Origin: an uncultured bacterium
Lineage (GTDB): Bacteria; Hydrothermota; Tepidihabitantia; Tepidihabitantales; DTDR01
Length of the DNA: 64,000 bases
Reading direction: 5' to 3'
Assembly (NCBI GenBank): GCA_938040315.1
Contig: CALHQW010000024.1
Location: 599-64,598, forward strand
Part shown: positions 1-14,156 of the stretch, in pieces
Numbering within the stretch: the first letter of the stretch is position 1
How the letters are laid out: every line of letters begins with the position of its first letter
The notes under the pieces: model-generated
Database searches by the model: none
Told to the model about the DNA's origin: nothing
Seen by the model: only the letters and a program-made list of their open reading frames with translations
Translations under genes and position numbers: made by a program

Positions 1-811
1 TTGCTTCATCATATTTTCCTAAATTGCTATAAATATTTCCTAATCCAAAATAAAAATCAGGAGAAAATATTATTTTTAATTCTATTTCTAATTTCACCAA
101 TTTTTGAATTATTTCTTTAATTTTCTCATACTCAGGTTTCTTTATAAATCCAATACTATACTCAGAAAATTCTGTCAAAACTTGATTAACTTCCGCTTTT
201 TTCTCTTTTGGAATTTCAGGTGGAAGGTATGATTGTTTAATCAGTAAAATTATATCGTCTTTAAGTTTGATAAGATTATCTTCTAAGATTTTTTTTAATT
301 CCTCCGTCTTTCTCCAGTCATAAGATTGATAATGTAAGTCTTTAACATCGGATAAATGTTTATCTACATCTAATTTTGGATTTGGAATTCTATGAGTATC
401 AAATTTTGATTTTATTTTCTCATCAAGATAAAGATTTTTAACATCAATCTCCGCATTTTTATCTTTCAAAACTATGATAGGCTTTCTTTTTGCAAGTAGA
501 AGTCCATATTCCAAAACAACATTCGGTCTCAAGCCATCCAATATCACTATTCCCAAAACACATTTATCCAACAATTCCAAAAGTTTTTCAAGGTTACTTT
601 CTTGGGATTTAATTGCCTCAGATAAAGTTTTTACTTCAAAATAATTTCCTATTACTTCCTTAATAATATTTATTACATGCTCAATATAATCTACATATTT
701 CTTATCCGGATGCACCACTACACATATATGTCCTTTGCTTACTTCTAATAAAGGCTCTAACTCTTTGGGAATATAAACCTCTTTTTGGATTTTTATTCTT
801 TCTTCCTTCAT
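1..811 (-). CDS. TIR-like nucleotide-binding domain + TPR repeat protein (C-terminus runs off the window start)
   Basis: Minus-strand frame is open from ATG 809-811 to the window edge. It is absent from the ORF track because no stop lies in the window. My translation reads MKEERIKIQKEVYIPKELEPLLEVSKGHICVVVHPDKKYVDY...CVLGIVILDGLRPNVVLEYGLLLAKRKPIIVLKDKN, which resembles the bacterial TIR-like (COG4271 / CAP12-type) core. The distal part ...FYFGLGNIYSNLGKYDEA is a TPR signature. Confidence 0.55.
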   Translation of the reverse strand, partial: MKEERIKIQKEVYIPKELEPLLEVSKGHICVVVHPDKKYVDYIEHVINIIKEVIGNYFEVKTLSEAIKSQESNLEKLLELLDKCVLGIVILDGLRPNVVLEYGLLLAKRKPIIVLKDKNAEIDVKNLYLDEKIKSKFDTHRIPNPKLDVDKHLSDVKDLHYQSYDWRKTEELKKILEDNLIKLKDDIILLIKQSYLPPEIPKEKKAEVNQVLTEFSEYSIGFIKKPEYEKIKEIIQKLVKLEIELKIIFSPDFYFGLGNIYSNLGKYDEA

Positions 812-818
812 CTTTTAG

Positions 819-847
819 ACTATACAAAAAAAATTTTTTTCTGTCAA
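819..847 (-). promoter_or_regulatory. sigma70-like promoter TTGACA-17-TATAGT, with the -10 ending 7 nt before the ATG (leaderless geometry)
   Basis: The reverse complement of 812-847 reads TTGACAgaaaaaaattttttttgTATAGTctaaaagATG. There is no SD. Confidence 0.45.
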
Positions 848-907
848 TTAAAAAAAAGTGGTAACCTGAACCCCTACTTTTCCGTCATATATATAAAGGA
901 GTAAAAT

Positions 908-1132
908 ATGAAATTTTACCTAACAGATGAAGAGAAAAGAAAAATAAAAAACTTAGGCATCCTAAAAACAAGCCAAGCGGCCTACTTCCTTAACGTCGAT
1001 AGAAAAACTATCATCAGACTTATTAAAAAGGGCCTACTAAAAGCAAAACGCTCTAAAACCTATAAAAAAGGGATGTTCCTTATCAAAGGCGATAACTTAA
1101 TTAAATTTGTTGAAGAATTCTTGGAAGGTTAA
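908..1132 (+). CDS. excisionase-family / MerR-like helix-turn-helix DNA-binding protein
   Basis: 74 aa. The segment LKTSQAAYFLNVDRKTIIRLIKKGLLKAKR...IKGDNLIKFVEEFL matches the excisionase-type HTH pattern. SD AAGGAG lies upstream. Confidence 0.6.
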   Translation: MKFYLTDEEKRKIKNLGILKTSQAAYFLNVDRKTIIRLIKKGLLKAKRSKTYKKGMFLIKGDNLIKFVEEFLEG

Positions 1133-1221
1133 AAATGCTCCAAAAATGTCCCAAAAATGTCCCAATCTGCCCCAAAGTGTCCCAATCTGCCCCAAAGTGT
1201 CCCCAACTGCCACAAACTGTC
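1131..1221. repeat. array of about 9 helically phased 9-11-bp direct repeats (consensus CC(C)AAANTGTC), also readable as 20-bp units CCCAAAGTGTCCCAATCTGC; iteron- or arm-site-like
   Basis: Read directly from the sequence: AAAAATGCTC CAAAAATGTC CCAAAAATGTC CCAATCTGC CCCAAAGTGTC CCAATCTGC CCCAAAGTGTC CCCAACTGC CACAAACTGTC. Confidence 0.8.
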
Positions 1222-1261
1222 CGTTTACTTTCACTCCTAAAATCACTATATTTTTCTATGT

Positions 1262-1534
1262 ATGAATGATAAAAAAATAATAAAAATTGTATGTCGAGGT
1301 TTAAGGGTAAATGCTCCTATTAAAATGATTGTGGAACTTAAGCCTGTGGAATCTTTTGACTATAAAAATTGCGTTTCCGAAATGGATTTCTTCGCCGTTA
1401 ATCTTATACAACACGCCGATATATCACTATCCGTCAGATTAATAAGAGAATTACTGCAAAGATTACCAGCAATGTTTCCTCCTGATATAAATAAAATTAT
1501 TAACGAATTCGAAGATAAAGACAACAAAGTATGA
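1262..1534 (+). CDS. hypothetical protein (mobile-element ORF)
   Basis: 90-aa ORF, co-directional with the block. Its stop overlaps the next start (ATGA at 1531-1534). No family recognised. Confidence 0.4.
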   Translation: MNDKKIIKIVCRGLRVNAPIKMIVELKPVESFDYKNCVSEMDFFAVNLIQHADISLSVRLIRELLQRLPAMFPPDINKIINEFEDKDNKV

Positions 1535-1884
1535 CTTTGAGCACCTATGGAGCACCTATGACCTTGAGCACCTTTGATATTTATAATATGAAAAGAATAA
1601 CCAGAAGAGCCCTACCCTACCCTGATATCTCCATGCCTATTATTATTAAGAAAATTAAGAAGACCGCTATCTTAAAGATATTTTATAGTTCTATAAAAAT
1701 TAGTCCGAGTTATTTTGTTAAAAGGTTTCTTTCTCTTTTTATCAATGCTTTTCTTTCCCTTTTTAATAATAAGATAGAAAATAAGATTGTTATTGAAAAA
1801 TCAAGGAGTTTTAAGTTTTTAAGATTGGGCGGAAGTTTTTGGAAAGAAAAAAAGGAGTTAAACTATGCCATTAAAACCACCTGA
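1531..1884 (+). CDS. hypothetical protein, possibly membrane-associated
   Basis: 117-aa ORF. The N-terminus carries a duplicated MTLST(Y/F) peptide that comes from a DNA duplication. Composition is low-complexity. Confidence 0.3.
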   Translation: MTLSTYGAPMTLSTFDIYNMKRITRRALPYPDISMPIIIKKIKKTAILKIFYSSIKISPSYFVKRFLSLFINAFLSLFNNKIENKIVIEKSRSFKFLRLGGSFWKEKKELNYAIKTT

Positions 1885-2245
1885 TAGAAGAATAAATAAA
1901 TGGGATATCAAAGTAGATGCTGATGTAATCAAGCAGACAATCCTAAGACATAAAAATATAATGAAAACTTATTACACCGCTGCCGCTGAATACTTCTATG
2001 ATAAAGAAGTAAGAACAAAGGCAATCTTAGATGAAAACGGAGTTTTACCCTCTCTATATCCAATGTATTATAACTTCACAAGGGAAATCGGAAGAAAAAT
2101 CTATTATGTCGGACTTGGTGGCGCAACCCTTCTATCCGAAGCATTAATAATAAAAGCAAAATGGACCTCTCGCGGACTTGATGAAACTATCCTTAATTTA
2201 ATTCTCGTAAATGTTTTTGGTATTACTCCACCTGCTGGACCATAA
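1865..2245 (+). CDS. hypothetical 126-aa protein, paralog A of a tandem pair
   Basis: SD AAGGAG lies upstream. Shares the motifs YPxYYxxTREIxR, KWxxxGL and NVFG(I/L)xPP with the next ORF. Confidence 0.55.
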   Translation: MPLKPPDRRINKWDIKVDADVIKQTILRHKNIMKTYYTAAAEYFYDKEVRTKAILDENGVLPSLYPMYYNFTREIGRKIYYVGLGGATLLSEALIIKAKWTSRGLDETILNLILVNVFGITPPAGP

Positions 2246-2269
2246 ATTTAATTAAAAAGGAGGTTTAAA

Positions 2270-2650
2270 ATGGCAAGAGATGCTTATTATACAGTAAATA
2301 AGTATGCTAATAAGATGGCAGGTGCCCATTTAGGACCTGCCTTCTCTAATCAGCATACTTTAATGGTTGTAAATTATGCTACTTACTACGGCGAAATCTG
2401 CTCCCTTATCGACCAAACAAAAGATATCCTCCACGGACAAGGCATTAGAATATCCCAATATCCCTATTATTTAACCTACACAAGAGAAATATACCGACAT
2501 TGGAAAAGATACTCCGGCCGAACTTTATACGCAATAAGAGACGCAATAAGAGATAAATGGCAAGCCTGGGGACTCTCTCTTACTATAATGAAACTCATCG
2601 ACCAAAACGTCTTCGGACTTCCACCTACTACTCCACCTCTTACACCTTAA
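2270..2650 (+). CDS. hypothetical 126-aa protein, paralog B of a tandem pair
   Basis: SD AAGGAGG lies upstream. Same length and same conserved motifs as 1865-2245. Confidence 0.6.
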   Translation: MARDAYYTVNKYANKMAGAHLGPAFSNQHTLMVVNYATYYGEICSLIDQTKDILHGQGIRISQYPYYLTYTREIYRHWKRYSGRTLYAIRDAIRDKWQAWGLSLTIMKLIDQNVFGLPPTTPPLTP

Positions 2651-2669
2651 TTTAAAGGAGAAGTTAAAT

Positions 2670-2750
2670 GGGATGGGCCGAAAATTCCTTAATAGACGTA
2701 AAAACCCCTTCTCTACCTCTTACAAGGAAGCGGGATTTTCCGCCCATCCC
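2670..2750 (+). other. long-range stem-loop (15 of 16 bp), GGGATGGGCcGAAAAT / ATTTTCcGCCCATCCC, with a ~49-nt loop
   Basis: Arms at 2670-2685 and 2735-2750, read directly. The arms are GC-rich within an AT-rich block. The element overlaps a possible 46-aa ORF at 2668-2808 that has an AAAGGAG SD. Confidence 0.4.
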
Positions 2751-2804
2751 GCACAAGGTTAGGACCTTGGGACACCTTAAAATTTTTATTAAAAGGAGGA
2801 AAAA

Positions 2805-3224
2805 ATGAAAATACTAAAAATAAAAAAAGTAAATAATAAAAAATTATTTAAAGAAAAATTAAAATCTTCCCTATCCAAAAACTCTCAAAAAGACTTAAAA
2901 AATCTTATCGATAAATACTATAAAATAAAAACCCTCGCCGAACATCTCGAAGGACAAAGACAAGCATTAAGAACCTTAATTATCTATCTAATGGAAGAGA
3001 AAAATATAAAATCCCTTGATACCGGTAAATATCTATGCGAATTATACACAATGGAACAAACAAGACTCGATATCGAAGAGATGAAAAGAACCTTACCAAA
3101 AGAACAACTTGAACTATTCGAAATTAAATTACAAACAAAGGCATTAAGAGTAATACCAAAAAACGAAGAAGAAGCAGTAAAAGATGTTATTAATAAATAC
3201 CCAAAAATATTTAAAAGGGGATAA
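2805..3224 (+). CDS. hypothetical Lys/Glu-rich, probably coiled-coil protein
   Basis: 139-aa ORF with SD AAGGAGG upstream. No family recognised. Confidence 0.5.
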   Translation: MKILKIKKVNNKKLFKEKLKSSLSKNSQKDLKNLIDKYYKIKTLAEHLEGQRQALRTLIIYLMEEKNIKSLDTGKYLCELYTMEQTRLDIEEMKRTLPKEQLELFEIKLQTKALRVIPKNEEEAVKDVINKYPKIFKRG

Positions 3225-3227
3225 AAA

Positions 3228-3425
3228 ATGAAAACAAAAAATCTATCTTTTACCTGTTTTATAACCTACGACGAAACACCCGGCTTTCCCTGTATCTATG
3301 AATTGAAAACAAAATTAGTAAGAAACCAATTATTTGTTAATATCTCAATGTCCTTTGATGTTCCCTTTATAATCAAAAGAAGAATAACTGTCGGCTTTTC
3401 TGTTAAATTAGTGCGTGCAAAATAA
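3228..3425 (+). CDS. hypothetical protein
   Basis: 65-aa ORF with a weak SD (AAGGGG), co-directional with the block. Confidence 0.35.
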   Translation: MKTKNLSFTCFITYDETPGFPCIYELKTKLVRNQLFVNISMSFDVPFIIKRRITVGFSVKLVRAK

Positions 3426-3428
3426 TAT

Positions 3429-3605
3429 ATGATTTATAAATTCTTCATCTCCCTTTCTTTAATAATTGTCTTTCTTATTCTGAAATTAAAAGGAATAAAT
3501 TCAATAACCGATACAATAGCGATGGCGATTATTGTATTCTGGCTTGGCTGGGAGTTTTCTAAATATAACCGATATAAAAGAGATAAAATAAATAATGATA
3601 AATAA
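3429..3605 (+). CDS. holin-like small membrane protein (58 aa; below the ORF-track cutoff)
   Basis: My translation is MIYKFFISLSLIIVFLILKLKGINSITDTIAMAIIVFWLGWEFSKYNRYKRDKINNDK. It has two hydrophobic helices and a basic tail. Its end overlaps the start of the M15 peptidase gene. Confidence 0.4.
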   Translation: MIYKFFISLSLIIVFLILKLKGINSITDTIAMAIIVFWLGWEFSKYNRYKRDKINNDK

Positions 3606-3963
3606 TTGGGAATTAGTAAAGAAGTATTTTAAGAGGGAAGAGTTTATCTGTCCTTGTTGTGGCAAGGAAGAGATGGTTTTTGAGTTTATATTAAAATTAT
3701 ACAAAGCGCGCGAGATTGCAAAAGTTCCCTTTATAATTCTTTCTGGTTATCGTTGTAAAAAGCATAATCAAGAGGTTGGCGGAGTTATTAATTCTTATCA
3801 TCTAAAAGGAGAGGCTTCGGATATAAAATGCGAGGATCCCTTTACCCGTTATATGATGTTAAACTCCTTTTTTCAAGCAGGTTTATATGGAATAATAATA
3901 TACAAAAACTTTATCCATGTAGATAATCGCAAGAATCGTATTTTGCTTTTGAAGTGCTTTTGA
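3595..3963 (+). CDS. peptidase M15A (YcbK / D-Ala-D-Ala carboxypeptidase-like) endolysin
   Basis: The motifs FICPCCG...SGYRCKKHNQEVGGVINSYHLKGEASD...FIHVDNR match the zinc-binding M15_3 pattern. Confidence 0.8.
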   Translation: MINNWELVKKYFKREEFICPCCGKEEMVFEFILKLYKAREIAKVPFIILSGYRCKKHNQEVGGVINSYHLKGEASDIKCEDPFTRYMMLNSFFQAGLYGIIIYKNFIHVDNRKNRILLLKCF

Positions 3964-3978
3964 AATGCTTTTAAATTA

Positions 3979-4689
3979 ATGGATAGTCTAAGGCAGGTTA
4001 TCTCCAAATTTGAGTATGAGAATATGAAAAAAGAGTTTAGCCGGCATCTTGCTAATTTATATCGCCAAATGAGAAGAAAAGAAAGAAAAGTTTTTTATCA
4101 TATTGGTTATCGAAACATGGCTGAAGATGGCTTCTGTTATGAATTTTACAAAAACATTGCCTTTCACACAGACGTTCACAGAAACACCATTTCTAAATAT
4201 GTAAATTTTTTTATTGAAAATAAATTATTAGAAAGAAAAATAATGAAAGCAAAATATCGTTATCGTAAAGGTCTGGTTCTAACTAAATTAGGATTATGTT
4301 TTTATATTTTTATTAATAGACTAAATATTTATTTATATAACAAATTTAAAGAAAATAAAAATTATAAAGAGATAGATTTTTATGATTTTATATATAAATT
4401 TATATTAAATATTTTCTATTTATTTAATAATATCTTAGGTAGTATGCACAATGAGATGCCCAAGGTTAGCAATTTTGATAGTGGAAAATGTGGAAATTTA
4501 GGCTTGGAGGGTAGAGATTTAGTTTTCGGAGATCTAAATTTAGGTTTTAAGGAGTTAAAAAAGCCACCTTCTTATAATGAACATCAAAAAATATGGGAAA
4601 AAAAGCGCGAACAATTTATAAAGTTATACAGAGCGGGTTTCAAACTATCCGAGGATATTATAAAGGAGTATAAATTAGATAAACAATGA
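3979..4689 (+). CDS. hypothetical protein with a putative winged-helix DNA-binding region (regulator or replication-initiator-like)
   Basis: 236 aa. The segment NIAFHTDVHRNTISKYVNFFIENKLLERK is HTH-like. The C-terminal GNLG...GFKELKK tail is duplicated downstream. Confidence 0.4.
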   Translation: MDSLRQVISKFEYENMKKEFSRHLANLYRQMRRKERKVFYHIGYRNMAEDGFCYEFYKNIAFHTDVHRNTISKYVNFFIENKLLERKIMKAKYRYRKGLVLTKLGLCFYIFINRLNIYLYNKFKENKNYKEIDFYDFIYKFILNIFYLFNNILGSMHNEMPKVSNFDSGKCGNLGLEGRDLVFGDLNLGFKELKKPPSYNEHQKIWEKKREQFIKLYRAGFKLSEDIIKEYKLDKQ

Positions 4690-4740
4690 AGGTGCCGAAG
4701 GTCATACCTTGTGCTCAAGGTCCTAAATTTGCGTGTGAAG
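4490..4740. repeat. direct repeat copy 1 (X1 4490-4563 and Y1 4711-4740), upstream of the MNT-HEPN cassette
   Basis: GTGGAAATTTAGG...TTTCGGAGA..AAATTTAGGTTTTAAGGAGTTAAAAAAG and GCTCAAGGTCCTAAATTTGCGTG recur at 5538-5633. Confidence 0.75.
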
Positions 4741-4756
4741 GTCTAACCTTCTTGAC

Positions 4757-5122
4757 ATGAGAAAAAAAATGGTTAAAATTAGAGAAGAATGGAAGGACAA
4801 AATGGAAGAAAAAGTTGTGGAGATTATTAAAGAAGAACTTAAAAAAAGGGGAATTAAAATTATCAAAATTATTCTCTTTGGTTCAAGGGCAAGGGGCAAT
4901 TTTAAAGTTGATAGTGATTGGGACTTTTTTGTTATTATTGACAAAACATTAAATTTCAATGAAAAATGGGATATAATTGATGAAATCAAAATAAAATTAG
5001 CCCAAAAAGGAATTCTCAATGATATTATTTTAAAATCGCCAAAAGAAATAGAAGAGGCAAAGGATGATGTTGGTAGGATTACTTATTATGCTTTAAGAGA
5101 AGGGATACATTATGAGAAATGA
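4757..5122 (+). CDS. MNT-type nucleotidyltransferase (antitoxin of a HEPN/MNT module)
   Basis: The segment LFGSRARGNFKVDSDWDFFVI is the GSxxRG...DxD Pol-beta-type NTase motif. The gene overlaps the downstream HEPN gene. Confidence 0.8.
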   Translation: MRKKMVKIREEWKDKMEEKVVEIIKEELKKRGIKIIKIILFGSRARGNFKVDSDWDFFVIIDKTLNFNEKWDIIDEIKIKLAQKGILNDIILKSPKEIEEAKDDVGRITYYALREGIHYEK

Positions 5123-5516
5123 AAAAACTATAAAAAATTGGATTTTTTTAGCAAATGGAGATTTAAAAACTGCCCAAGATGAACTGAAATCGGAAGATCC
5201 TTTTACCAACTCAATATGTTTTCATGCTCAACAATGTGTTGAAAAATATCTTAAGGCTTATCTTACTTTAGTTGGTGAACCCTTTGGCAAGACCCATGAC
5301 ATCGCACTATTAATTGAATTGTGTAAAAAATACGATACTAAATTTGATGAACTATATCAATTAAAGGCTCATAAATTAAATAGGTATGCAGTGGAGTTAA
5401 GATATCCTGAAGATTTTTACATTCCAACAATTGAGGAGGCAAAAGAAAGTATTGAGATTGCCAAAAAAGTTAAGGAATTTGTGTTAAAAGAAATTGAAAA
5501 ATACGGCATTATATGA
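5112..5516 (+). CDS. HEPN domain protein (toxin of a HEPN/MNT module)
   Basis: 134 aa, helical. The segment LNRYAVELRYPED matches the HEPN pattern. Pairing with an upstream NTase is the canonical arrangement. Confidence 0.8.
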   Translation: MRNEKTIKNWIFLANGDLKTAQDELKSEDPFTNSICFHAQQCVEKYLKAYLTLVGEPFGKTHDIALLIELCKKYDTKFDELYQLKAHKLNRYAVELRYPEDFYIPTIEEAKESIEIAKKVKEFVLKEIEKYGII

Positions 5517-5656
5517 AAAAGGATATCCACAAAGGAGGTGGAAATTTAGGTTTCGGAGACAAAAATTTAGGTTTTAAGGAGTTAAAAAAGTCTTCTGATT
5601 TAGTTGCTCAAGATCCTAACCTTGCGTGCGATGTTAAATATAATGGACGAAGATAA
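5513..5656 (+). pseudogene. 47-aa ORF that is a shortened duplicate of the C-terminal tail region of the 3979-4689 product
   Basis: An ATGA start/stop overlap links it to HEPN. It translates as MKKDIHKGGGNLGFGDKNLGFKELKKSSDLVAQDPNLACDVKYNGRR, compared with ...GNLGLEGRDLVFGDLNLGFKELKKPPS in the longer copy. Confidence 0.3.
5538..5633. repeat. direct repeat copy 2 (X2 5538-5590 and Y2 5603-5633), downstream of the MNT-HEPN cassette
   Basis: Hand alignment to 4490-4563 and 4711-4740. Relative to copy 1, this copy lacks about 21 nt within X and the 147 nt that separate X1 from Y1, where only 12 nt separate X2 from Y2. Confidence 0.75.
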
Positions 5657-5682
5657 TTTATGGGATGAGAAAAAAATATTGA

Positions 5683-5952
5683 CATAAAATAAAAAAATGG
5701 CTTGCTTGTTGGGTTGAAGTTTTTAGCAATTATGCCTATGTTGCTGATTATAATGCTGGTCTCCAGATTTATGAGTTTTACGGCACCGGTATAAGTGAAG
5801 AGAAAGAAACAAGTAAGATAAAACCCCTTTCTTTTAAAGATAAAAAGACCTACGACCTAACTGGCAAAATTATAAAGGGAGAGAAACTGAAAAAAGGCAT
5901 CTACTTCCAAAAAACCGATAAAGGTATAAAAAAGATACTGATTTTAAAATAA
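5683..5952 (+). pseudogene. start-less 3' fragment of an LVIVD-repeat surface protein with a T9SS C-terminal sorting domain
   Basis: The frame is open from 5683 with no in-frame start. Translation: ..WVEVFSNYAYVADYNAGLQIYEFYGTGISEEKE...KKGIYFQKTDKGIKKILILK*. It contains an LVIVD motif and a CTD-like tail. Confidence 0.6.
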
Positions 5953-5957
5953 CTAAA

Positions 5958-7088
5958 TTAAAGAGAGAAGTTATAACCAAAATATAGTTTAAAAGAAAAT
6001 CCTTTGGCATTAAGTAATATCCCTTTATAATACTCTTGGATTATTAGAAAATCAAATTTTTTAATATTTATTCCTAAACCAAGTCCAATTTCATAAGAGA
6101 AATTTTCTAAATAAATATCTTTACTAACCGGCAAATAAAGAGTCAAAGAATTAATAATTGATAAAAAATTAAAGGGTTGGTAATTTAATTTAGAATAAAA
6201 TTTAAAGAATTCTTTTATTGCCCAAGAGAGACCGGGTTCAATTTTAAAATAATCTTTTATTTTATTCTCTAAACCGAAATTAATCTCTGTTGGCAAAGGA
6301 TTATTAACAAATCCCTTTGTCTCTTTTTCTTCTTTATTAAAGGAATAATAATTGCCCGCACTTATCTTGTTAAAATTTAAAGAATCAATTATTAAAGTAA
6401 TCTTGCCAATCCGATTATCTTTCTGCCAAAGAATTCTGTTTCCCAAATTTTCAATTATAATTTTAAAACCAAATTTTTCATTCCTTTTTCTTCCGAAAGC
6501 AATATCAAAACCAAAACCTCGACCACCAGAACTTTTTTGATAATTTATTTCATTATAAAAATTGAGGGAATTCTGGGTAGTCAAAAGATTTAAATAATTA
6601 TTTTCAGTTTTCAAATAATAATAGCCTTCTAAATAACTTATTCCCAAACCTAAGATCCAATCTCTTTTAAGAGAAAAATTAAAACTATTTTTTATTTGAC
6701 TAAAGGCAAAAACTTCTCCTTTGCTCTCTTTTGATTGATAAATCTGATTTAATCTATTACCAAAAAAAAGTAAATCAAAAATCTCTTTCTCAATCCTTCC
6801 TTTACTTCGGAAATTAAAAGAAATAGCCAAATTCCAAAAATGATAATAGAGAGATAAAAAAGATAAATTAACTTCACCAGACAATTTTAGACCCTCTTGG
6901 GGAATAATCTTCAAAATAGTTTCTTTATCCTTTTTATCTAAATATTTTCCATTATAATAATTATAATCTTTACCACTAAAAGCATTATTATAAAAATTGA
7001 GATTAACACCAAAAATCTGATAATAAACTTTATTTTCCGAAAATAAACTTATAAAATTAAAAAAAGTTAAAATTAAATAAATTGCCAT
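5958..7088 (-). CDS. predicted outer-membrane beta-barrel protein (family not recognised)
   Basis: 376 aa with a hydrophobic N-terminus, alternating aromatic/Gly beta-strand pattern, and a C-terminal ...YFGYNFSL. It lies 2 nt downstream of the lipoprotein gene. Confidence 0.5.
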   Translation of the reverse strand: MAIYLILTFFNFISLFSENKVYYQIFGVNLNFYNNAFSGKDYNYYNGKYLDKKDKETILKIIPQEGLKLSGEVNLSFLSLYYHFWNLAISFNFRSKGRIEKEIFDLLFFGNRLNQIYQSKESKGEVFAFSQIKNSFNFSLKRDWILGLGISYLEGYYYLKTENNYLNLLTTQNSLNFYNEINYQKSSGGRGFGFDIAFGRKRNEKFGFKIIIENLGNRILWQKDNRIGKITLIIDSLNFNKISAGNYYSFNKEEKETKGFVNNPLPTEINFGLENKIKDYFKIEPGLSWAIKEFFKFYSKLNYQPFNFLSIINSLTLYLPVSKDIYLENFSYEIGLGLGINIKKFDFLIIQEYYKGILLNAKGFSFKLYFGYNFSL

Positions 7089-7090
7089 AA

Positions 7091-9001
7091 TTATTTTTTA
7101 ATTGATTTTACTATCTCCTTTGTTTTTACTTTTAATATCGCATAAGTATTAAAACTTAAAAAATCATTAGGTCTTAAAAGAACGGTATCACTTTCTGGTA
7201 AATAAATCTTCAAAATAGTTTTCAATCCTTCTTTTTTAAAGATTTCTAACTCTCTTTCATTCATTTCTAAAACTATTTCACTTTCCTTTTCTTTTTCACA
7301 ATAACCCTTTTTTGAAACTATGCCACTTTGTAAAACAAAAGGAAGAACTACCGAATCTCCTCTTTCTGATTTTATAACTATTGAGCCATCAAAACCAATT
7401 GGAAAATGGTTGATAACTTCCACAACCAATTCGCCCCCTACTAAATTTTTATTAATCTTTTCTTTTTCGCTTTCTTTTAGATAAATTTCTTTCTCGTAAG
7501 CGATGAAGGTATCTTTACTAAAAGAAAATTTTAGTGGTATCTCAACCGAAGCATTCACTAAAATAAAATCTTTTTCTTCCAGTTCTCCTTTACCAATTAT
7601 TCTTCCCAAATAATTAAATTCCAAAACTTTCGGACCATTATTTATTAAATTAGTAATATCAATTTTTTCGTTTATTCTTTGGATAGGTTGACCATTTCTT
7701 GAAGGCAGTTCAATTTCTTTATAAAGAGAAGAGACTTCTTTATTACGGTTAACACTTTTACCAGTGAGAAAAAATTTAATCGGTACTTCTATATCATAAA
7801 TAAAATCTAAAAACATTTCTACCTTTTCAAATTTTATTCCCTTGGGATTTCCTAAGAGATCTAATATTAAAGAATCTTTTTTATTCAAAAAATAGAAGGG
7901 TGATAAAAAGGCACCATCAATTTTCTTAAACTTTAAATCTCTTAATAATCCACTAAAAGAAAGATAATCCTCTTTTCTAATATTGAAAAAATTCTCTGTA
8001 TCCTTAATTTGGGCATTAATTTCTATTGGCAAAAGAAACCCTTTCTTATCAATAGAATTTTGTTTAATAATTTTCCCTTCTAAGGAGATAGCAATCCTTT
8101 TATTTCCGTAGGGATTAATATCAAAATTATTTTCATAATTTATTTCTCCAATTTTGAGAGAGATTAATAGCGGAAAGGAAAATTGATTTATAAAATCTAA
8201 ATCCAAAAAACCTTCCTTTATTTCTCCATAATTTAAATCAAAATCAATTGATGGATTAAAATAGTGGGTAGAAGTATAATTTAAAACTGAATTTTTAAAT
8301 TTTAATTCGCCCTCAATTAATTTAATATTTGTGAATTTAAATATTAATTTTAAATAATCCCTTTTTCTTACTAATAAAGATTCATCAGTGGAAATCTCGT
8401 AAACCAATAAGAGATTAATCGGTGAAGAAAGAAATATATTCTCAATTATTTCCGACAACTCCTTCTGAGAATTTGGTTCTAAAATTCCGAGATTAAAGTT
8501 AAAATTACTTATATTAATTTTAAAGTATCTAAAATTTATTAATGAATGGTTTTCAATATTTAAAGCAAAAAAAGATCTTTCAATGAGACCATAATGAAAA
8601 TTATCTAAATTGATTACTTTCTCTAACTCCTTTTGTAAATTTATTGGTGGTAAAATGATAAAACTATCAGGAATGGTAACTCCCAAAATCTCTTCAATAT
8701 TAATGATTATTTCTTTAGAAAAGGTATCGCAAATTTCAAAATAATTAAAATAATAAGTATTATTAACTCGATCGCTACTAAAATTAATTTTTGTTATTGG
8801 AAAAAAGGTATCAAAACTATTTTGATAAAAGAAATTAAAGATTGAATCGGAATTAAAAGTAAAATAATGGGAATCTAAAAAAGAAAAGATGGTAAAATCT
8901 TTTTTTAATAAGGGAATTGTTATTTCGGTATCCCATTCCGGAAGTTTTGGTTTTTCTAAGCAAGCCAAAAAGAAGACTCCTAAAAAGAATAACTTTTTCA
9001 C
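7091..9001 (-). CDS. predicted lipoprotein, 636 aa, unknown function
   Basis: GTG start with AGGAGGTG SD. The signal MKKLFFLGVFFLAC carries a lipobox-like cysteine. Confidence 0.55.
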   Translation of the reverse strand: MKKLFFLGVFFLACLEKPKLPEWDTEITIPLLKKDFTIFSFLDSHYFTFNSDSIFNFFYQNSFDTFFPITKINFSSDRVNNTYYFNYFEICDTFSKEIIINIEEILGVTIPDSFIILPPINLQKELEKVINLDNFHYGLIERSFFALNIENHSLINFRYFKINISNFNFNLGILEPNSQKELSEIIENIFLSSPINLLLVYEISTDESLLVRKRDYLKLIFKFTNIKLIEGELKFKNSVLNYTSTHYFNPSIDFDLNYGEIKEGFLDLDFINQFSFPLLISLKIGEINYENNFDINPYGNKRIAISLEGKIIKQNSIDKKGFLLPIEINAQIKDTENFFNIRKEDYLSFSGLLRDLKFKKIDGAFLSPFYFLNKKDSLILDLLGNPKGIKFEKVEMFLDFIYDIEVPIKFFLTGKSVNRNKEVSSLYKEIELPSRNGQPIQRINEKIDITNLINNGPKVLEFNYLGRIIGKGELEEKDFILVNASVEIPLKFSFSKDTFIAYEKEIYLKESEKEKINKNLVGGELVVEVINHFPIGFDGSIVIKSERGDSVVLPFVLQSGIVSKKGYCEKEKESEIVLEMNERELEIFKKEGLKTILKIYLPESDTVLLRPNDFLSFNTYAILKVKTKEIVKSIKK

Positions 9002-9027
9002 ACCACACCTCCTTTATTTATAAAAAA

Positions 9028-9320
9028 AGGGCTACCGGTACCCTGGGTCCGTTCGTCTCGCCTCTAAAATATTATTAAGAGGTGGCATCCTCTATTTTTT
9101 GAACGGTTCACTCAGTAGTACCAGCGCCCTTTTTCTTCATCTCCTCCTCCCCTCTAAATTAACCGGGGGCCTAAAAATGAGGACTGGGCTATGAACTCAA
9201 AAGGGAGGTTAAATCTTAGACCCCCGAATCTTATTTGGGATGTAGTGCTGCCATCGGAACACCCAAACGCCTAAACTTTTATCCTTCCTCCGAAACCGAA
9301 AATTCGCACTACATCCCAAA
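9028..9320. ncRNA. GC-enriched, highly structured RNA-like element of unknown class (strand unresolved)
   Basis: Three long helices were read directly: 9029-9054 with 9101-9129, 9164-9174 with 9216-9226, and a perfect 15-bp helix 9234-9248 with 9306-9320. There is also a CCTCT/AGAGG/CCTCT alternative-pairing triplet at 9061-9093. The first helix is flanked by A7 and T5. Confidence 0.5.
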
Positions 9321-9646
9321 CAATGTGGTAAGGAGGTGAAAATGCGAGCAATCTTATCTTTTATTTTTTATCTTTACCCACTTTTCAAAGAACCTTTCTA
9401 TTTCTTTCTATAAAAGAAAGTTCAAAAACTATGCCAAAAGAAAAATTAAAAACTTTAAAAAAACATTGATTTTTAAAGGTTTTATTAAAGTCTCTATAAT
9501 TATCTAAAATAAAATTCTTCTATAAAAGTGCGACAAAATAAACTTAAGATAAACAATTGTTATTTAAATCACATAATTTCAATAATTTATAAAAAAATGT
9601 GACACTCTTTAATTTTTAAGATTTATATAAAATAAAGGTTTATATC

Positions 9647-9674
9647 TTGACTTTTATTTTAAATATATTATAAT
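9647..9674 (+). promoter_or_regulatory. sigma70-like promoter TTGACT-16-TATAAT, with the -10 ending 7 nt before the rimP ATG (leaderless geometry)
   Basis: Read directly. There is no SD between the -10 box and ATG 9682. Confidence 0.5.
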
Positions 9675-9681
9675 TATTTCT

Positions 9682-10149
9682 ATGGAAAAATTACCAGAAG
9701 AGGTTTATAATTTAATTTTTAAAACGGTGAATGAAAAGGGATTAGAACTTTATGATGTGGAATATGATGGAAAAAATTTGAGAGTTTATATTGATATGCC
9801 TGGTGGAGTAACAATTAATATCTGCGAAGAAGTATCTAATATATTATCATTAAAATTAGATGCTTTGGATTTAATACCCCATTCTTATATTTTAGAAGTC
9901 TCTTCTCCTGGTGTGGAAAGAAAGTTAAAAAATGCCACACATTTTAAAAAAGTGATTGGCAAAAAGATAATGGTCCAAAAAGATAATGACTACGTTTATG
10001 GTGAACTTTTAAATGCCGATGACCAACTAATTACTTTAAAAACTTTAGAAAGTTCTTATTTAAAACCAGGAGAAATTGTGAATATTAACTATTCAGAAAT
10101 AAAAAAAGCCGAAGTAAAAGTTACTACTAAGGAGTTATTTAAAAAATGA
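9682..10149 (+). CDS. rimP: ribosome maturation factor RimP
   Basis: 155 aa with the LEVSSPGVERKL motif. Lies upstream of nusA, which is the conserved order. Confidence 0.85.
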   Translation: MEKLPEEVYNLIFKTVNEKGLELYDVEYDGKNLRVYIDMPGGVTINICEEVSNILSLKLDALDLIPHSYILEVSSPGVERKLKNATHFKKVIGKKIMVQKDNDYVYGELLNADDQLITLKTLESSYLKPGEIVNINYSEIKKAEVKVTTKELFKK

Positions 10150-11423
10150 AAAGAGAAGAAATTTTAAATTATCTTAGTGAAATTGCCCGAAAAAGGAATG
10201 TTGATATATTATATGTTAATGAAGCCTTAAAAGAAAGTTTGATTACGGGACTTAAAAAAAGATATGGTTCCGATTCCGAACCGGAAGTAGAGATTGATTT
10301 AGAAAAAGGAGAAATTAGAATTTTTCTAAATAAAACTGTCGTAGAGTCAGTAATAAAATTAGGCAAGGAGATCTCTTTAGAGGAAGCCAAAACAATTAAT
10401 CCGGATGCAAAAATTGGAGATAAAATTAGGGTTCCTTTGCCACTCAATGAGGTTGGCCGTTCTACTATTCAAAAGGCTGCTGATGAGTTAATAAATCGGC
10501 TCCGTTCTGTTGAGAAGAATAAATTATACGAGGAATTCAAAAAAAAGGAAAAGGAGATTACTTCGGGCACCATTTATCAAGTTACCAAAGACCGGGTCAT
10601 TGTTAATTTAGGCGCGGTGGAAGGCTATTTTTTGCCGCAGGACTATTTAAAATCTGACCGATTAAGACCAGGAACAGTTATTAAAGCCTACGTAGTGAAA
10701 GTCGAAAAAACTCCCTTGGGACCAAGAGTTCATTTATCTCGAACTCATCAAGAATTTGTAAAAAAACTTTTAGCCAAGGAGGTTCCAGAAATTCAACAAA
10801 ATATAGTTCAAATTAAAGCCATTGCCCGGATTCCTGGTATCCGAACAAAAATCGCTGTTCATTCGGAGGACGAGAAAATTGATCCGGTGGGCGCCTGTGT
10901 TGGTTTCAAACGTTCAAGAATTGAAAATGTTCTAAAAGAACTTGGCGAAGAAAAAATTGATATTATCCAGTGGTCAAAGGATTTAAAAATTTTTGTTGCT
11001 CGGGCATTAAGTCCGGCAAAAGTAAAAGAAGTAATAAAAGAAAATGATAAATATATTGCTGTCGTTCCTGATAGTGATTATCCAATTGCTGTTGGGAAAA
11101 AGGGTAATAATGTTAATTTAGCCAGTCGAGTAACTGGTGCCAATATTGAAATTTTAAAATTGAGCGACTATTTAGATAGACAAATAAAAGAAAAAGCAAA
11201 AACTATCTTGTTAAAAGATTTAGACCTTTCTGATATTCTTTTAGAAAAATTAGCCGAAAACCAAATTATTAGGGCCTTTGACTTATTAACTGCTTCCGAA
11301 GAAAATATAAGTAAATTTATTAATTATGATATTGAGCAGGTAAAAAAATTAAAAAAGGATGTGGAAGAGAAGATAAAAGAAAAATTCTTTACCCACGAAA
11401 CCGAAGAGGAAAGTGGAAGTTAA
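10146..11423 (+). CDS. nusA: transcription termination/antitermination factor NusA
   Basis: S1/KH domain pattern (VKVEKTPLGPRVHLSRTH..., DPVGACVGFKRSRI). Conserved rimP-nusA-infB order. Confidence 0.95.
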   Translation: MKREEILNYLSEIARKRNVDILYVNEALKESLITGLKKRYGSDSEPEVEIDLEKGEIRIFLNKTVVESVIKLGKEISLEEAKTINPDAKIGDKIRVPLPLNEVGRSTIQKAADELINRLRSVEKNKLYEEFKKKEKEITSGTIYQVTKDRVIVNLGAVEGYFLPQDYLKSDRLRPGTVIKAYVVKVEKTPLGPRVHLSRTHQEFVKKLLAKEVPEIQQNIVQIKAIARIPGIRTKIAVHSEDEKIDPVGACVGFKRSRIENVLKELGEEKIDIIQWSKDLKIFVARALSPAKVKEVIKENDKYIAVVPDSDYPIAVGKKGNNVNLASRVTGANIEILKLSDYLDRQIKEKAKTILLKDLDLSDILLEKLAENQIIRAFDLLTASEENISKFINYDIEQVKKLKKDVEEKIKEKFFTHETEEESGS

Positions 11424-11427
11424 TTTT

Positions 11428-13470
11428 ATGAAAACCGATCGTTTGAAAGTAAATGAGGTCGCTAAAAGACTTAACCTTTCGCCTAAGGCGGTTGTTAATT
11501 TGTTAAAAGAATTGGGATTTAAAGAAAGGGGGTACACTTCTTTTGTCACCTTTGAAGAATACGAAGCAATAAAAAGAAAAATTAAAGAGGAAGAAAAATT
11601 ATATGTCGGTAAGATTGAAAAAAAAGAAGAATTAGAAAAAGAATCAAAGGAAGAAAAAAAATTTAAAGGAAGCGAAAGTAAAATTCAAAAGCCAAGTATC
11701 AAAGTTAAAAAGATTGAGAAAAAAAAGATAGCCTCGCCGGAGAAATTTAAAATTGAAGTTACCCCTTTTATGACTGTTTCTCAATTGGCAGCAGCCTTTG
11801 ATGTTTTACCCGCGGATATTATCAAAGTTTGCTTAAAATTGGGTTTAATCGCTACCATTAATCAACGATTAGATTTGGATACCATCTATTTACTTGCTGA
11901 TGAATTTAAAAAAGAGATTGTTGTAAAAGAAGAAGTACCGATTGAAAAAAAATTAACCGAAGTTGCTTTACAACCTCGACCACCAGTGGTCACGGTTATT
12001 GGTCATGTGGATCACGGAAAAACTACTTTATTAGATTACATTAGAAAAACCAAAATTGCGGAAAAGGAGGTTGGTAGAATAACTCAACATGTAGGCGTTT
12101 CCGTTGTAAATTACAAAAATGAAAAGATTATCTTTCTTGATACTCCTGGACACGAAGCCTTCACGGCGATGAGAGCCAGGGGAATTCAAGTAACAGACAT
12201 TGCCATTTTAGTAGTCGCTGCCAATGAAGGAGTAAAACCGCAAACAGAAGAAGCAATAAATCATGCTCGGGCAGCGGGCGTGCCAATTATTGTGGCAATT
12301 ACGAAAGTTGACTTACCCGATGCTAATCCCGAAAAAGTAAAAGCCCAGTTGGCTAACTATGGAATCCGCGTTGAAGGGTATGGTGGCGATGTGATTGCGG
12401 TAGAAACCTCGGCTTATACTGGTTATGGCATTGATGATCTATTAGATGCAATTCTTTTAGTTAGTCATATTGCCAATCTTAAAGCACCTTTTGAAGGTTT
12501 AGGCACAGGAGTAGTAATTGATAGCCGAATTGATAAAGGTAGAGGAATTATTGCTACTGTCTTAACTTATGAAGGAAGAATTGAAAGGGGAAATTTCTTT
12601 GTCTGTGGCGAAGTTTATGGTAAGGTAAGAGATATTTTTGATGTTTTACCCGATAAGTTTAAAAGAATTGAATTTAGTGACCCAGCCAATCCTTGTCAAA
12701 TTACTGGTTTTTCCGAAATTCCCGAACCCGGCGAAAAGTTTATGGTGGTGGAAAATGAAAAAATTGCTCGCGAATTAGCCCAAAGAAAAAAATTACAAAA
12801 ACAAACAGAAAAATTAAAATTACAAAAAAAATTAACCTTACAATCCATTCAAGAAAAAATTCAAAAAGGTGAGACAAAAGAATTAAAAATTGTTTTAAAA
12901 GCCGATGTGATGGGTTCTTTAGAAGCAATAAAACATGCTTTGGAAGAATTATCCTTAGAAGAAGTGAAAATTAAAATTATTCATGCGGGAATCGGTGCCA
13001 TTACAAAATCGGATGTATTATTAGCAGCGGCTTCGGAAGCAATTGTGGTTGGTTATCACGTATCTCCTTTAAACGATGCTCAAGAAATTGCTGACCGACA
13101 AAAAATTGAAATAAGAACTTATAAAATTATTTATCAAGCGATTGACGACATTCGGGCAGCCCTGTTGGGTCTTTTAGAAGAAGAGAAAAAGGAAGTATTG
13201 ATTGGTAAAGCAATTGTGAGAAAGGTATTTAATATAAAGGGAGTAGGCTTAGTAGCCGGTGCTTTTGTTTTAGAAGGCAAAATAATAAGGGATGGTATTG
13301 TTAAGGTTCTAAGAAACGATACCGAAATTTTTAAAGGTAAAATAACTTCTTTAAAAAGATTTAAAGAAGATGTAAAAGAAGTGGAGGCAAACTACGAATG
13401 TGGAATTGGCATTGGTGGGATTGAAGATCTACAAGAAGAAGATTTGTTGGAATGTTATATTGAAGAATAG
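11428..13470 (+). CDS. infB: translation initiation factor IF-2
   Basis: GTPase motifs GHVDHGKTTLLD, DTPGH and TKVD. The start could be ATG 11428 or GTG 11413. Confidence 0.95.
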   Translation: MKTDRLKVNEVAKRLNLSPKAVVNLLKELGFKERGYTSFVTFEEYEAIKRKIKEEEKLYVGKIEKKEELEKESKEEKKFKGSESKIQKPSIKVKKIEKKKIASPEKFKIEVTPFMTVSQLAAAFDVLPADIIKVCLKLGLIATINQRLDLDTIYLLADEFKKEIVVKEEVPIEKKLTEVALQPRPPVVTVIGHVDHGKTTLLDYIRKTKIAEKEVGRITQHVGVSVVNYKNEKIIFLDTPGHEAFTAMRARGIQVTDIAILVVAANEGVKPQTEEAINHARAAGVPIIVAITKVDLPDANPEKVKAQLANYGIRVEGYGGDVIAVETSAYTGYGIDDLLDAILLVSHIANLKAPFEGLGTGVVIDSRIDKGRGIIATVLTYEGRIERGNFFVCGEVYGKVRDIFDVLPDKFKRIEFSDPANPCQITGFSEIPEPGEKFMVVENEKIARELAQRKKLQKQTEKLKLQKKLTLQSIQEKIQKGETKELKIVLKADVMGSLEAIKHALEELSLEEVKIKIIHAGIGAITKSDVLLAAASEAIVVGYHVSPLNDAQEIADRQKIEIRTYKIIYQAIDDIRAALLGLLEEEKKEVLIGKAIVRKVFNIKGVGLVAGAFVLEGKIIRDGIVKVLRNDTEIFKGKITSLKRFKEDVKEVEANYECGIGIGGIEDLQEEDLLECYIEE

Positions 13471-13755
13471 ATGACCGTTGGTCTATTAATTATTGATTGT
13501 CTTTGTGGCAATGGTCAATCTTTGAAAGATAAAAGAAGATTTATTAATTCTTTGTTTGCCCGCTTAAAAAAGGAATTTAACATTTCAATATTAGAAATGG
13601 ATTACCAAGATTTATGGCAGCGTTCCAAATTAGCCATCTGTTTTATTAACAACTCAAATGAGGCTTCTTTAAAAACAAAAAGCAACTTACTAAAATTTTT
13701 AGAAAACTACCCTAACTTAACAATTTTAGACCATCAGTATCAAAAATTGTATTAG
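13471..13755 (+). CDS. DUF503 (YlxP-like) protein
   Basis: SLKDKRR...L...FN.S..E.DYQDLWQRS pattern. Its position directly after infB is conserved. Confidence 0.8.
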   Translation: MTVGLLIIDCLCGNGQSLKDKRRFINSLFARLKKEFNISILEMDYQDLWQRSKLAICFINNSNEASLKTKSNLLKFLENYPNLTILDHQYQKLY

Positions 13756-13757
13756 AG

Positions 13758-14156
13758 ATGTATTATACTTTAAAAATTACTACACCAAAAAGGATTGCTT
13801 TTGTTGATATAACCCCAAAAATTGAAGAGGTGATAAATAAAAGTGGCATAAATTCAGGAATCTGTTACCTTTATGTCCCCCATACGACTTGTGGAATCAC
13901 TATTAACGAAAATTACGATCCCTCAGTAATCAATGATATTAATAATATCCTATCTCGTTTGATTCCTAAAAATGGAGCCTATGAGCATACCGAAGGCAAT
14001 GCTGATGCTCATATCAAAACTTCTTTAATTAACTCCTTTGCTCTTCTCTTTTTTGAAAATAAAAAGATTGTTTTAGGTACTTGGCAAGGAGTTTTTCTTT
14101 GCGAATTTGATGGACCGAGAGAAAGAAAGGTTTATCTTAAAATTCTTCCTGATTAA
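13758..14156 (+). CDS. YjbQ/UPF0047 family protein (secondary thiamine-phosphate synthase-like)
   Basis: Motifs VPHTTCGITINEN, EGNADAHIKTSL and LGTWQGVFLCEFDGPRERK. Confidence 0.85.
   Translation: MYYTLKITTPKRIAFVDITPKIEEVINKSGINSGICYLYVPHTTCGITINENYDPSVINDINNILSRLIPKNGAYEHTEGNADAHIKTSLINSFALLFFENKKIVLGTWQGVFLCEFDGPRERKVYLKILPD

Follow-up and report, generated by a model that had tools for sequence, protein, structure and literature searches.

Two described proteins come closest in build to the gene reported here. BcTpr of Bacillus cereus carries a glycosidase head (residues 1–189) followed by a tail of tetratricopeptide repeats (TPRs; residues 190–415), cleaves nicotinamide adenine dinucleotide (NAD+) and makes an isomer of cyclic ADP-ribose (cADPR); it protects from phage only together with the neighbouring BcTir, and the exchanges N82A and E86A abolish both NAD+ depletion and defence (doi 10.1101/2023.05.26.542521). 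A "CMP hydrolase and TPR" effector (CMP, cytidine monophosphate) has been named ThsI and assigned to Thoeris type VIII, and it responds to canonical cADPR (doi 10.64898/2025.12.03.692087, Table S2); we place it in one family with BcTpr. As its example we used WP_045284274.1, which is encoded beside ThsB on the Escherichia coli IncP plasmid NZ_CP147111.1 (L036:2776–3984). A third point of reference is ElSTING, a Cap12 protein, for which E86A serves as the catalytically dead control (PMC12421889). Here we analyze a gene at the left edge of a 64,000-nucleotide stretch of DNA from an uncultured bacterium of the Hydrothermota (assembly GCA_938040315.1, contig CALHQW010000024.1, positions 599–64,598 of the forward strand; this whole stretch is called the window below). 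Its product joins a TIR-like head to the start of a TPR array and may serve in phage defence. The gene and its parts are as follows.

Positions 1–811, minus strand: 5′ part (270 codons) of the gene for a TIR-like/TPR protein, from its open translation and homologues; the stop codon lies beyond the window.
Positions 819–847, minus strand: sigma-70-like promoter TTGACA-17-TATAGT, matching at 11 of 12 positions; a consensus match only, located in the same low-depth contig as the gene.
Positions 227–727, minus strand: conserved head domain (residues 29–195), a TIR/NDT-like alpha/beta core (NDT, nucleoside 2-deoxyribosyltransferase) with a conserved C-terminal extension, from AlphaFold2 (AF2), Foldseek and the family profile.
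Positions 503–538, minus strand: family motif D92-G-L-R95-P-N97-V-V-L-E101-Y-G103, from alignments; the E101 codon, GAA, is at 511–509.
Positions 350–358, minus strand: a further conserved motif, H152-L-S154, lying in NPKLDVDKHLSDVKDLH; family alignments show H152 and S154 to be nearly invariant.
Positions 62–226, minus strand: helical linker from the head to the TPR array (residues 196–250), with AF2 helices at residues 202–220 and 228–245 and no Pfam match.
Positions 1–61, minus strand: start of the first TPR (residues 251–270), cut by the window edge; it matches positions 2–20 of the 34 of the TPR_1 model (E = 5.5e-4).

The reading frame is open on the minus strand from the ATG at 811 to position 1, and its product starts with MKEERIKIQKE. 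It is absent from the listing of open reading frames (ORFs) because it leaves the window at its end. By our own estimate, 270 open codons would arise by chance with a probability of ∼1e-10 at ∼30% G/C content, where ∼8% of random codons are stops. Database searches returned 19 proteins that match the window protein with 43–54%, mostly ∼50%, identity, the best of them covering the fragment completely (100%) at 53–54% (E = 2e-77 to 5e-75), indicating that the ORF is a real gene. The closest relatives of this bacterial protein include proteins from metagenome-assembled genomes (MAGs) of Methanosarcinales, and the lengths of the homologues lead us to expect a full-length protein of ∼395–450 amino acids (aa). 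The gene had first been pointed out by a reading made from the letters of the window without searches (hereafter the sequence-only reading), which described an unlisted minus-strand ORF without a stop codon. This ORF is indeed there, and the two peptides quoted from it, CVLGIVILDGLRPNVVLEYGLLLAKRKPIIVLKDKN and the TPR peptide GLGNIYSNLGKYDEA, correspond to residues 84–119 and 256–270 of its product. Judging from the consensus match upstream, the gene probably has its own promoter. The −10 box ends 7 nucleotides ahead of the ATG; because of this short distance, the mRNA may be leaderless or nearly so. We also saw no Shine-Dalgarno sequence.

The AF2 models of the window protein (predicted local distance difference test 83, predicted template-modelling score 0.8) have an alpha/beta core of four parallel strands (residues 29–33, 59–63, 84–90 and 112–117). 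E101 begins the helix that comes after strand 3, and residues 120–250 make up the rest of the head and the helical linker. Foldseek searches of the PDB matched TIR-STING (SfSTING), plant TIRs (RPPT, RPS4, L6), the TIR of SPARTA, NDT, DNPH1 and BcmB, and a search of BFVD matched a phage "CMP/hydroxymethyl-CMP hydrolase". E values were 1e-4 to 1e-5 for TIR-STING, the plant TIRs, NDT, DNPH1, BcmB and the phage "CMP hydrolase", while some small GTPases and GFAT isomerase domains appeared at lower ranks. A better match to a flavodoxin or another Rossmann domain had been named beforehand as a finding that would speak against a TIR-like head; flavodoxins and other generic Rossmann enzymes never ranked above the TIR/NDT group in Foldseek. 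The modelled fold by itself would not tell a TIR domain from an NDT-like enzyme.

Profile comparisons point in the same direction. The best Pfam family of the window protein is PF10137 (CAP12/Pycsar TIR; E = 0.002 to 9e-4), with 18.6 bits for the 270-aa product and 19.7 bits for 196 aa, both below the gathering cut-off of 24.7; the relative P0027 reaches 26.9 bits and thus passes it. PF10137 is also matched at E < 1e-3 by 27 of the 49 short members of the family (best 2.5e-7), whereas 12 of the 49 match PF05014 (NDT) and one matches TIR. The PF05014 score of the window protein is 15.1 bits versus a cut-off of 28.8, and the best E value for PF05014 in the family is 2.9e-5. In turn, the hidden Markov model of the family detects a bona fide PF10137 protein (L035:697–1470) with 135.9 bits, and a TPR-free family profile run against the PDB finds the TIR of Brucella BtpA (E = 0.002–0.003) and also Cap12 (9lmq). 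Together, these comparisons show that the head, i.e., the ∼195 N-terminal residues, has a TIR/nucleoside-2-deoxyribosyltransferase fold that is closest to PF10137 yet outside its cut-off. The TIR-like domain of the COG4271/PF10137 kind proposed by the sequence-only reading is therefore upheld by the sub-threshold Pfam match, by P0027 and the 27 of 49 short members, and by Foldseek. The family as a whole would rather be a divergent sister group of PF10137 than part of it, and a marginal member at best.

Within the motif at 503–538, D92, G93, L94, R95, N97, V98, E101 and G103 are invariant among close homologues and at least 90% conserved in the broader family alignment. E101 aligns with E86 of ElSTING/Cap12 (9lmq; position counted along the chain), in a weak profile alignment (E = 0.095) that places RDNVVFEFG on the family sequence RPNVvFEyG. 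The check for a conserved catalytic Glu that the sequence-only reading had suggested thus leads to an invariant residue. When the family alignments are compared by hhalign, N97 and E101 align with N72 and E76 of ThsI in exact register over 94 columns (probability 40%, E = 2.9e-4, 16% identity); a single-sequence hhalign of ThsI against the family aligned one TPR and not the head. By our own count of ten extra N-terminal residues in the family consensus, N72/E76 of ThsI would be N82/E86 of BcTpr. N97 and E101 are thus predicted to be the catalytic/phosphate-binding pair of an intact Asn-x3-Glu motif. The second motif, H152-L-S154, may be the counterpart of FDLNH in ThsI, being co-linear with ThsI D101/H104 solely in a relaxed, non-significant hhalign extension. 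As substrate we predict NAD+ or a nucleotide: PF10137 relatives and BcTpr use NAD+, and the head of ThsI carries the annotation "CMP hydrolase".

The TPR_1 match at the window edge falls below the Pfam cut-off because the repeat is cut. All 12 of the 12 longer homologues run on in register into TPR arrays, with TPR_1 E values down to 2e-53. Complete close homologues have 395–452 aa (in one case 577 aa) and carry 3–8 canonical TPRs followed by a short conserved tail. By homology, the array of the window protein is predicted to continue beyond residue 270, and the fusion of a TIR-like head to TPRs that had been suspected from the window is real in the homologues. A comparison with Avs/STAND-like proteins that accompanied this suspicion did not hold, since Pfam scans of the window protein and of its 395–755-aa relatives show no NTPase family. 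A STAND/Avs-type sensor was accordingly rejected as a candidate: no P-loop NTPase was found between the head and the TPRs.

Searching the family profile over 1.84 billion representative proteins gave 407 clusters with the head domain at E ≤ 1e-3 and 95 at E ≤ 1e-30. The head is N-terminal in each listed match longer than the domain itself, and three types of tail follow it: none at all (170–200 aa), 3–8 or more TPRs (∼400–750 aa), or ∼900 residues without a Pfam match (1,060–1,100 aa). The last class comprises P0027, P0028, P0049, P0072, P0075, P0082 and a protein from a Promethearchaeota (Asgard) MAG (L027:9992–13300). Members are patchily distributed over Asgard, ANME (anaerobic methanotrophic) and Methanosarcinales archaea and at least 10 bacterial phyla. 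In GTDB they occur in ANME-1, Asgard and Thermoplasmatota, with Methanosarcinales MAGs in addition, and among bacteria in Nitrospirota, Syntrophaceae, Chloroflexota, Acidobacteriota, Omnitrophota, Planctomycetota and Marinimicrobia.

In nine Acidobacteriota loci, a stand-alone TIR-like gene (170–190 aa) is followed by a conserved ∼117-aa ORF, which mostly overlaps or abuts its stop codon (L012:10453–10803, L014:3796–4155, L015:6998–7351, L017:10495–10842, L018:10561–10950, L019:10486–10836, L020:10450–10812, L025:3381–3737 and L030:10481–10903). The ∼117-aa product has no Pfam match and carries the motifs REYSxxExxGK and ESDExGPY; head and ORF may form a two-gene variant of the system. Three MAG loci have a family copy that is broken into two reading frames (L011:9872–11035, L030:9989–10487 and L031:9821–10371), which could stem from a frameshift, from pseudogene formation or from faulty assembly.

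By analogy, and at somewhat less than an even chance, we read the window protein as a self-contained sensor-effector in which the TPR part controls an NAD+/nucleotide glycosidase, and we infer a role in defence. In the resting state, the TPR/linker part would hold the heads apart or closed. A trigger (a phage protein or a small nucleotide) would bind the TPR array and lead the heads to assemble; E101 would then cleave the N-glycosidic bond of NAD+ or of a nucleotide, and depletion of an essential metabolite would abort the infection.

Several lines of evidence favour this sensor-effector reading. With its N-terminal head, varied tails and patchy spread, the family appears to have evolved in a modular, conflict-like manner. 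Exact matches of housekeeping proteins of the window fall into 90%-identity clusters whose further members are named as proteins of candidate division WOR-3, and the gene is accessory in this group: three related WOR-3 contigs (L037–L039) are syntenic with window positions 5958–16033 at 54–89% amino-acid identity and have none of the genes of positions 1–5957, i.e., the TIR-like gene, a small element and a toxin-antitoxin (TA) pair, which places the gene in a strain-variable block. One of these contigs, L037, has a 376-aa gene, then a GTPase gene and a HEAT-repeat gene. Near the window gene lie the TA pair, of the MNT/HEPN type, and the mobile element, and comparable surroundings were found for close homologues: P0007 is encoded between an HTH_17 gene (before) and an ApeA-type HEPN gene (after), and P0001 has a gene for a PF10137 TIR protein two genes upstream. 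In total, three of five close-homologue contexts hold TA or defence-type neighbours, while one close homologue lies amid small orphan ORFs. Self-containment is suggested by searches with phmmer (four TIR queries) and Pfam scans of adjacent genes: across 39 loci and the 64 kb of the window, they found neither a ThsB-like TIR nor a second family copy. It is also suggested by the genes that lie in the same orientation beside six TPR-fused and two contig-truncated members, which encode HisG, DsbA, a methyltransferase, EPSP synthase, ProRS, ferredoxin, a DUF1016-SNase protein and three products without a Pfam match, and in no case a TIR. Going further, the family could be an undescribed clade of single-gene immune sensors that combine a PF10137/ThsI-related head with canonical TPRs and lack a TIR signal generator; such a clade would have spread horizontally among uncultivated archaea and at least 10 bacterial phyla and would have the Acidobacteriota two-gene version and the ∼1,100-aa version as sister forms. 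We regard this wider claim as possible, yet doubtful.

A number of observations weigh against the sensor-effector reading. In our neighbour survey (142 ORFs from 27 GTDB loci, analyzed with Pfam, PADLOC and all-against-all BLAST), housekeeping families dominate, among them EPSP synthase, tRNA synthetases, HisG, Hsp70 and RNase PH. No recurring defence family was found in the 27 loci: no Pfam family occurs more than three times, PADLOC gave a handful of matches, and the only conserved partner in the all-against-all BLAST is the ∼117-aa ORF of the Acidobacteriota stand-alone forms. The family gene mostly stands by itself amid such genes. Two Methanosarcinales MAGs keep the family gene directly after gatE, a fixed place that looks more like that of a resident cellular gene. 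PADLOC gave no significant match for the window fragment (best E = 0.009), nor did NCBIfam, and there are zero members in the viral contigs of IMG/VR (searched with the family profile) and in the plasmids of PLSDB (tblastn). Furthermore, fold and profile scores are modest (template-modelling (TM) score 0.4–0.7; hhalign probability 40%). The BB-loop aromatics of ElSTING, W34 and F39, have no counterpart in the weak alignment to Cap12 mentioned above (E = 0.095), where W34 is paired with L63 and F39 is inserted relative to the family; the family consensus in this region is "..L.e.IKSG.S", and NAD+ is therefore not assured as the substrate. Finally, a protein built like BcTpr may need a partner, as BcTpr alone gave no protection and the downstream flank of the window gene lies outside the window.

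Because housekeeping neighbours predominate and defence partners do not recur, despite the TA or defence-type genes at three of five close homologues, we infer the defence role rather than assert it. The sequence-only reading had named consistent housekeeping contexts as the finding that would speak against a defence gene; this applies to most of the wider family in the 27 loci, and not to those three of the five close homologues. The anti-phage role that it had put forward is plausible, on the strength of analogy and of mixed context evidence in which no recurrent defence partner was found.

The same neighbourhoods could be explained by a resident cellular enzyme or regulator without an immune role, either a TPR-scaffolded N-glycosidase in nucleotide/NAD turnover or a catalytically silent TIR-like adaptor, which stands beside the element by chance. 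Such a protein would account for the predominance of housekeeping neighbours in the 27 loci, for the place after gatE conserved in the two Methanosarcinales MAGs, for the lack of a PADLOC match to the window fragment and for the absence of the family from the viral and plasmid collections, and its structural relatives NDT, DNPH1, MilB and BcmB are indeed metabolic. However, a resident enzyme would hardly be expected to show so patchy a distribution, with archaeal proteins closest to a bacterial gene, or to be missing at the syntenic site in related WOR-3 genomes. The catalytic motif is invariant but the tails that follow it vary widely, the loci share no recurrent operon partner from metabolism, and TA or defence-type genes are found in three of the five close-homologue contexts. 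On balance, we consider this explanation rather unlikely.

Alternatively, the protein could be the effector of a two-gene system like Thoeris type VIII, in which a separate TIR protein detects the infection and makes a cADPR-type signal, the TPR part binds it and the head degrades NAD+ or nucleotides; the partner would then be encoded downstream of the window gene. Module order and size equal those of BcTpr and ThsI, the Asn-x3-Glu motif is in register with that of ThsI, and BcTpr by itself gives no protection. A partner could lie in the downstream flank, which is beyond the window, and the P0001 locus has its PF10137 TIR gene two genes upstream. The heads are distant, however (hhalign probability 40%, 16% identity), the ThsI tail is of the TPR-S type as opposed to the canonical TPR_1/2/8/11 repeats found here, with weak TPR-S cross-matches only, and the searches around more than 30 loci of the family turned up no TIR resembling ThsB. 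On its upstream side, the window gene has the divergent HTH_17 gene of the mobile element as its neighbour. We therefore judge a Thoeris-like effector to be unlikely.

The remaining explanations concern the DNA to the right of the gene. Placing Logan contigs of the source metagenome on the window gave the following depths and features.

Positions 1–848: TIR-like gene and its promoter, depth ∼6x (6.4x).
Positions ∼850–4770: core of the small element, depth 30–660x.
Positions 4770–5560: MNT/HEPN pair, depth ∼6x.
Right of position 6014: flanking chromosome, depth 2–4x.
Positions 848–851: junction between the low-depth DNA of the gene and the high-depth small mobile element (∼850–6013), marked by a jump in depth from 6.4x up to 848 to 30–200x from ∼850; contigs of the abundant variant diverge left of 851.
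Positions 908–1132: HTH_17/excisionase-like gene, divergent from the TIR-like gene.
Positions 1139–1209: four iteron-like repeats of ∼20 nucleotides.
Positions 1865–2245 and 2270–2650: two paralogous 126-aa genes.
Positions 3595–3963: M15 endolysin-like peptidase gene.
Positions 3979–4689: 236-aa orphan gene, with the highest depth.
Positions 4757–5122 and 5112–5516: MNT/HEPN toxin-antitoxin pair, a low-depth cassette.

The stretch 850–6013 behaves as a small mobile element, present in many more copies than its flanks. The sequence-only reading had taken the TIR-like gene to be part of this mobile block. As stated, this was rejected on the depth evidence: depth jumps at ∼850, just upstream of the promoter of the gene, which indicates that the gene is not within the part that the element copies have in common, and the abundant copies in the metagenome lack it. 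One Logan contig reaches 74 nucleotides past the window start. The gene abuts the core of the element and would be either variable cargo at its edge or plain flanking chromosome. No integrase was seen within 850–6013, so the true element may reach further left, past the TIR-like gene.

It is quite improbable that the gene is variable cargo or an addiction toxin, which would stabilize the adjoining element or compete with other elements rather than protect the host: the gene does abut the HTH_17/excisionase end at the junction, a second close homologue likewise follows an HTH_17 gene, the entire block 1–5957 is missing from relatives and the element may extend left past the gene, but the abundant copies do without it (∼6x versus 30–660x, with contigs diverging at 851), no antitoxin-like partner is adjacent to it and most family members do not lie beside mobile-element genes.

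Within the element, the MNT/HEPN pair looks like a cassette insertion peculiar to this copy. Direct repeats of 54 nucleotides with 89% identity bracket it at 4510–4563 and 5537–5590, as does another duplicated segment at 4716–4741 and 5609–5633, and a small ORF at 5513–5656 repeats the C-terminus of the 236-aa protein. A 27-nucleotide tandem duplication is found at window positions 1530–1576, at the start of the ORF 1531–1884, and the abundant element variant is shorter by exactly 27 nucleotides there. Rfam searches of the whole window returned nothing, and there are no tRNAs in the window.

If the window protein is active as the self-contained sensor-effector proposed above, the partner-free TIR-like/TPR design would join the known NAD+- and nucleotide-depleting immune effectors and would extend them to WOR-3, ANME and Asgard archaea and Acidobacteriota, in which defence systems are almost untested. 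Since the head sits between the PF10137 TIR NADases and the "CMP hydrolase" heads of ThsI, its substrate and mode of activation would help to relate these two groups of effectors. Should it prove to be a housekeeping enzyme, it would caution against calling a defence gene on the basis of a TIR-like head, a TPR tail and a neighbouring TA module.

A comparison with the known systems defines the position of the family. Proteins of the STAND/Avs type share the order of an N-terminal effector and a C-terminal TPR array, in which the repeats sense and the head executes. In contrast to them, the present proteins, with 395–750 aa, have no P-loop NTPase or other domain between the head and the TPRs. 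NDT, DNPH1 and the CMP N-glycosidases MilB and BcmB have the same fold, with a catalytic Glu opening the same helix; Foldseek matched NDT, DNPH1 and BcmB at E ∼1e-4 with TM scores of up to 0.68 (target-normalized), and 10–12 family members weakly match PF05014. Unlike the present family, these are small stand-alone metabolic proteins without TPR tails.

CAP12/Pycsar TIR NADases (SfSTING, 7un8; ElSTING/Cap12, 9lmq; PycTIR) are among the best PDB fold and sequence matches and share the R-x-N-V-V-(F/L)-E-x-G motif, with E101 on E86. As in TIR-STING, the head would be N-terminal to a regulatory C-terminal module. This module is a TPR array here, whereas CAP12/Pycsar systems use a STING, SAVED or, in PycTIR, cNMP-binding part. 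Other differences are that the window protein stays below the Pfam cut-off, that the BB-loop aromatics appear not to be conserved and that no cyclase gene is nearby.

The comparison with ThsI and BcTpr is the closest. Like them, the family has a ∼190-aa head, a predicted N-glycosidase/"CMP hydrolase" here, and then a TPR-type tail, with ∼400 aa in total, and like ThsI it has Asn-x3-Glu-x-Gly after the third strand, aligned in register. An "SG" loop and a "D..H" motif are possibly shared as well, in a relaxed, non-significant alignment only. In contrast, the heads would be only remotely related, and the ThsI head has no PF10137 match while the present family matches PF10137. The ThsI tail belongs to TPR-S (PF20308, E = 1.5e-17)/MAP3K_TRAF_bd, whereas the present tails are canonical TPR_1/2/8/11; TPR-S is matched weakly by five of 20 family members (best 1.8e-5), compared to 2e-53 for TPR_1. 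ThsI is encoded beside the TIR gene thsB, and no ThsB-type partner was found for the present family in 39 loci. In the plasmid record that encodes ThsI (L036:1143–4339 of NZ_CP147111.1), the ThsI–ThsB pair lies beside a second TIR gene and a DUF4231/SLATT gene (type VII-like), an arrangement described in the Thoeris survey preprint (doi 10.64898/2025.12.03.692087). Because tail type and PF10137 match differ and no TIR partner was found in those loci, the present family is not the ThsI family; by these sequence comparisons, it is a separate, uncharacterized lineage with the same working parts. Thus, the build of a TIR-like or glycosidase head with TPRs is known from BcTpr and ThsI, and what is new is a family of its own that combines them.

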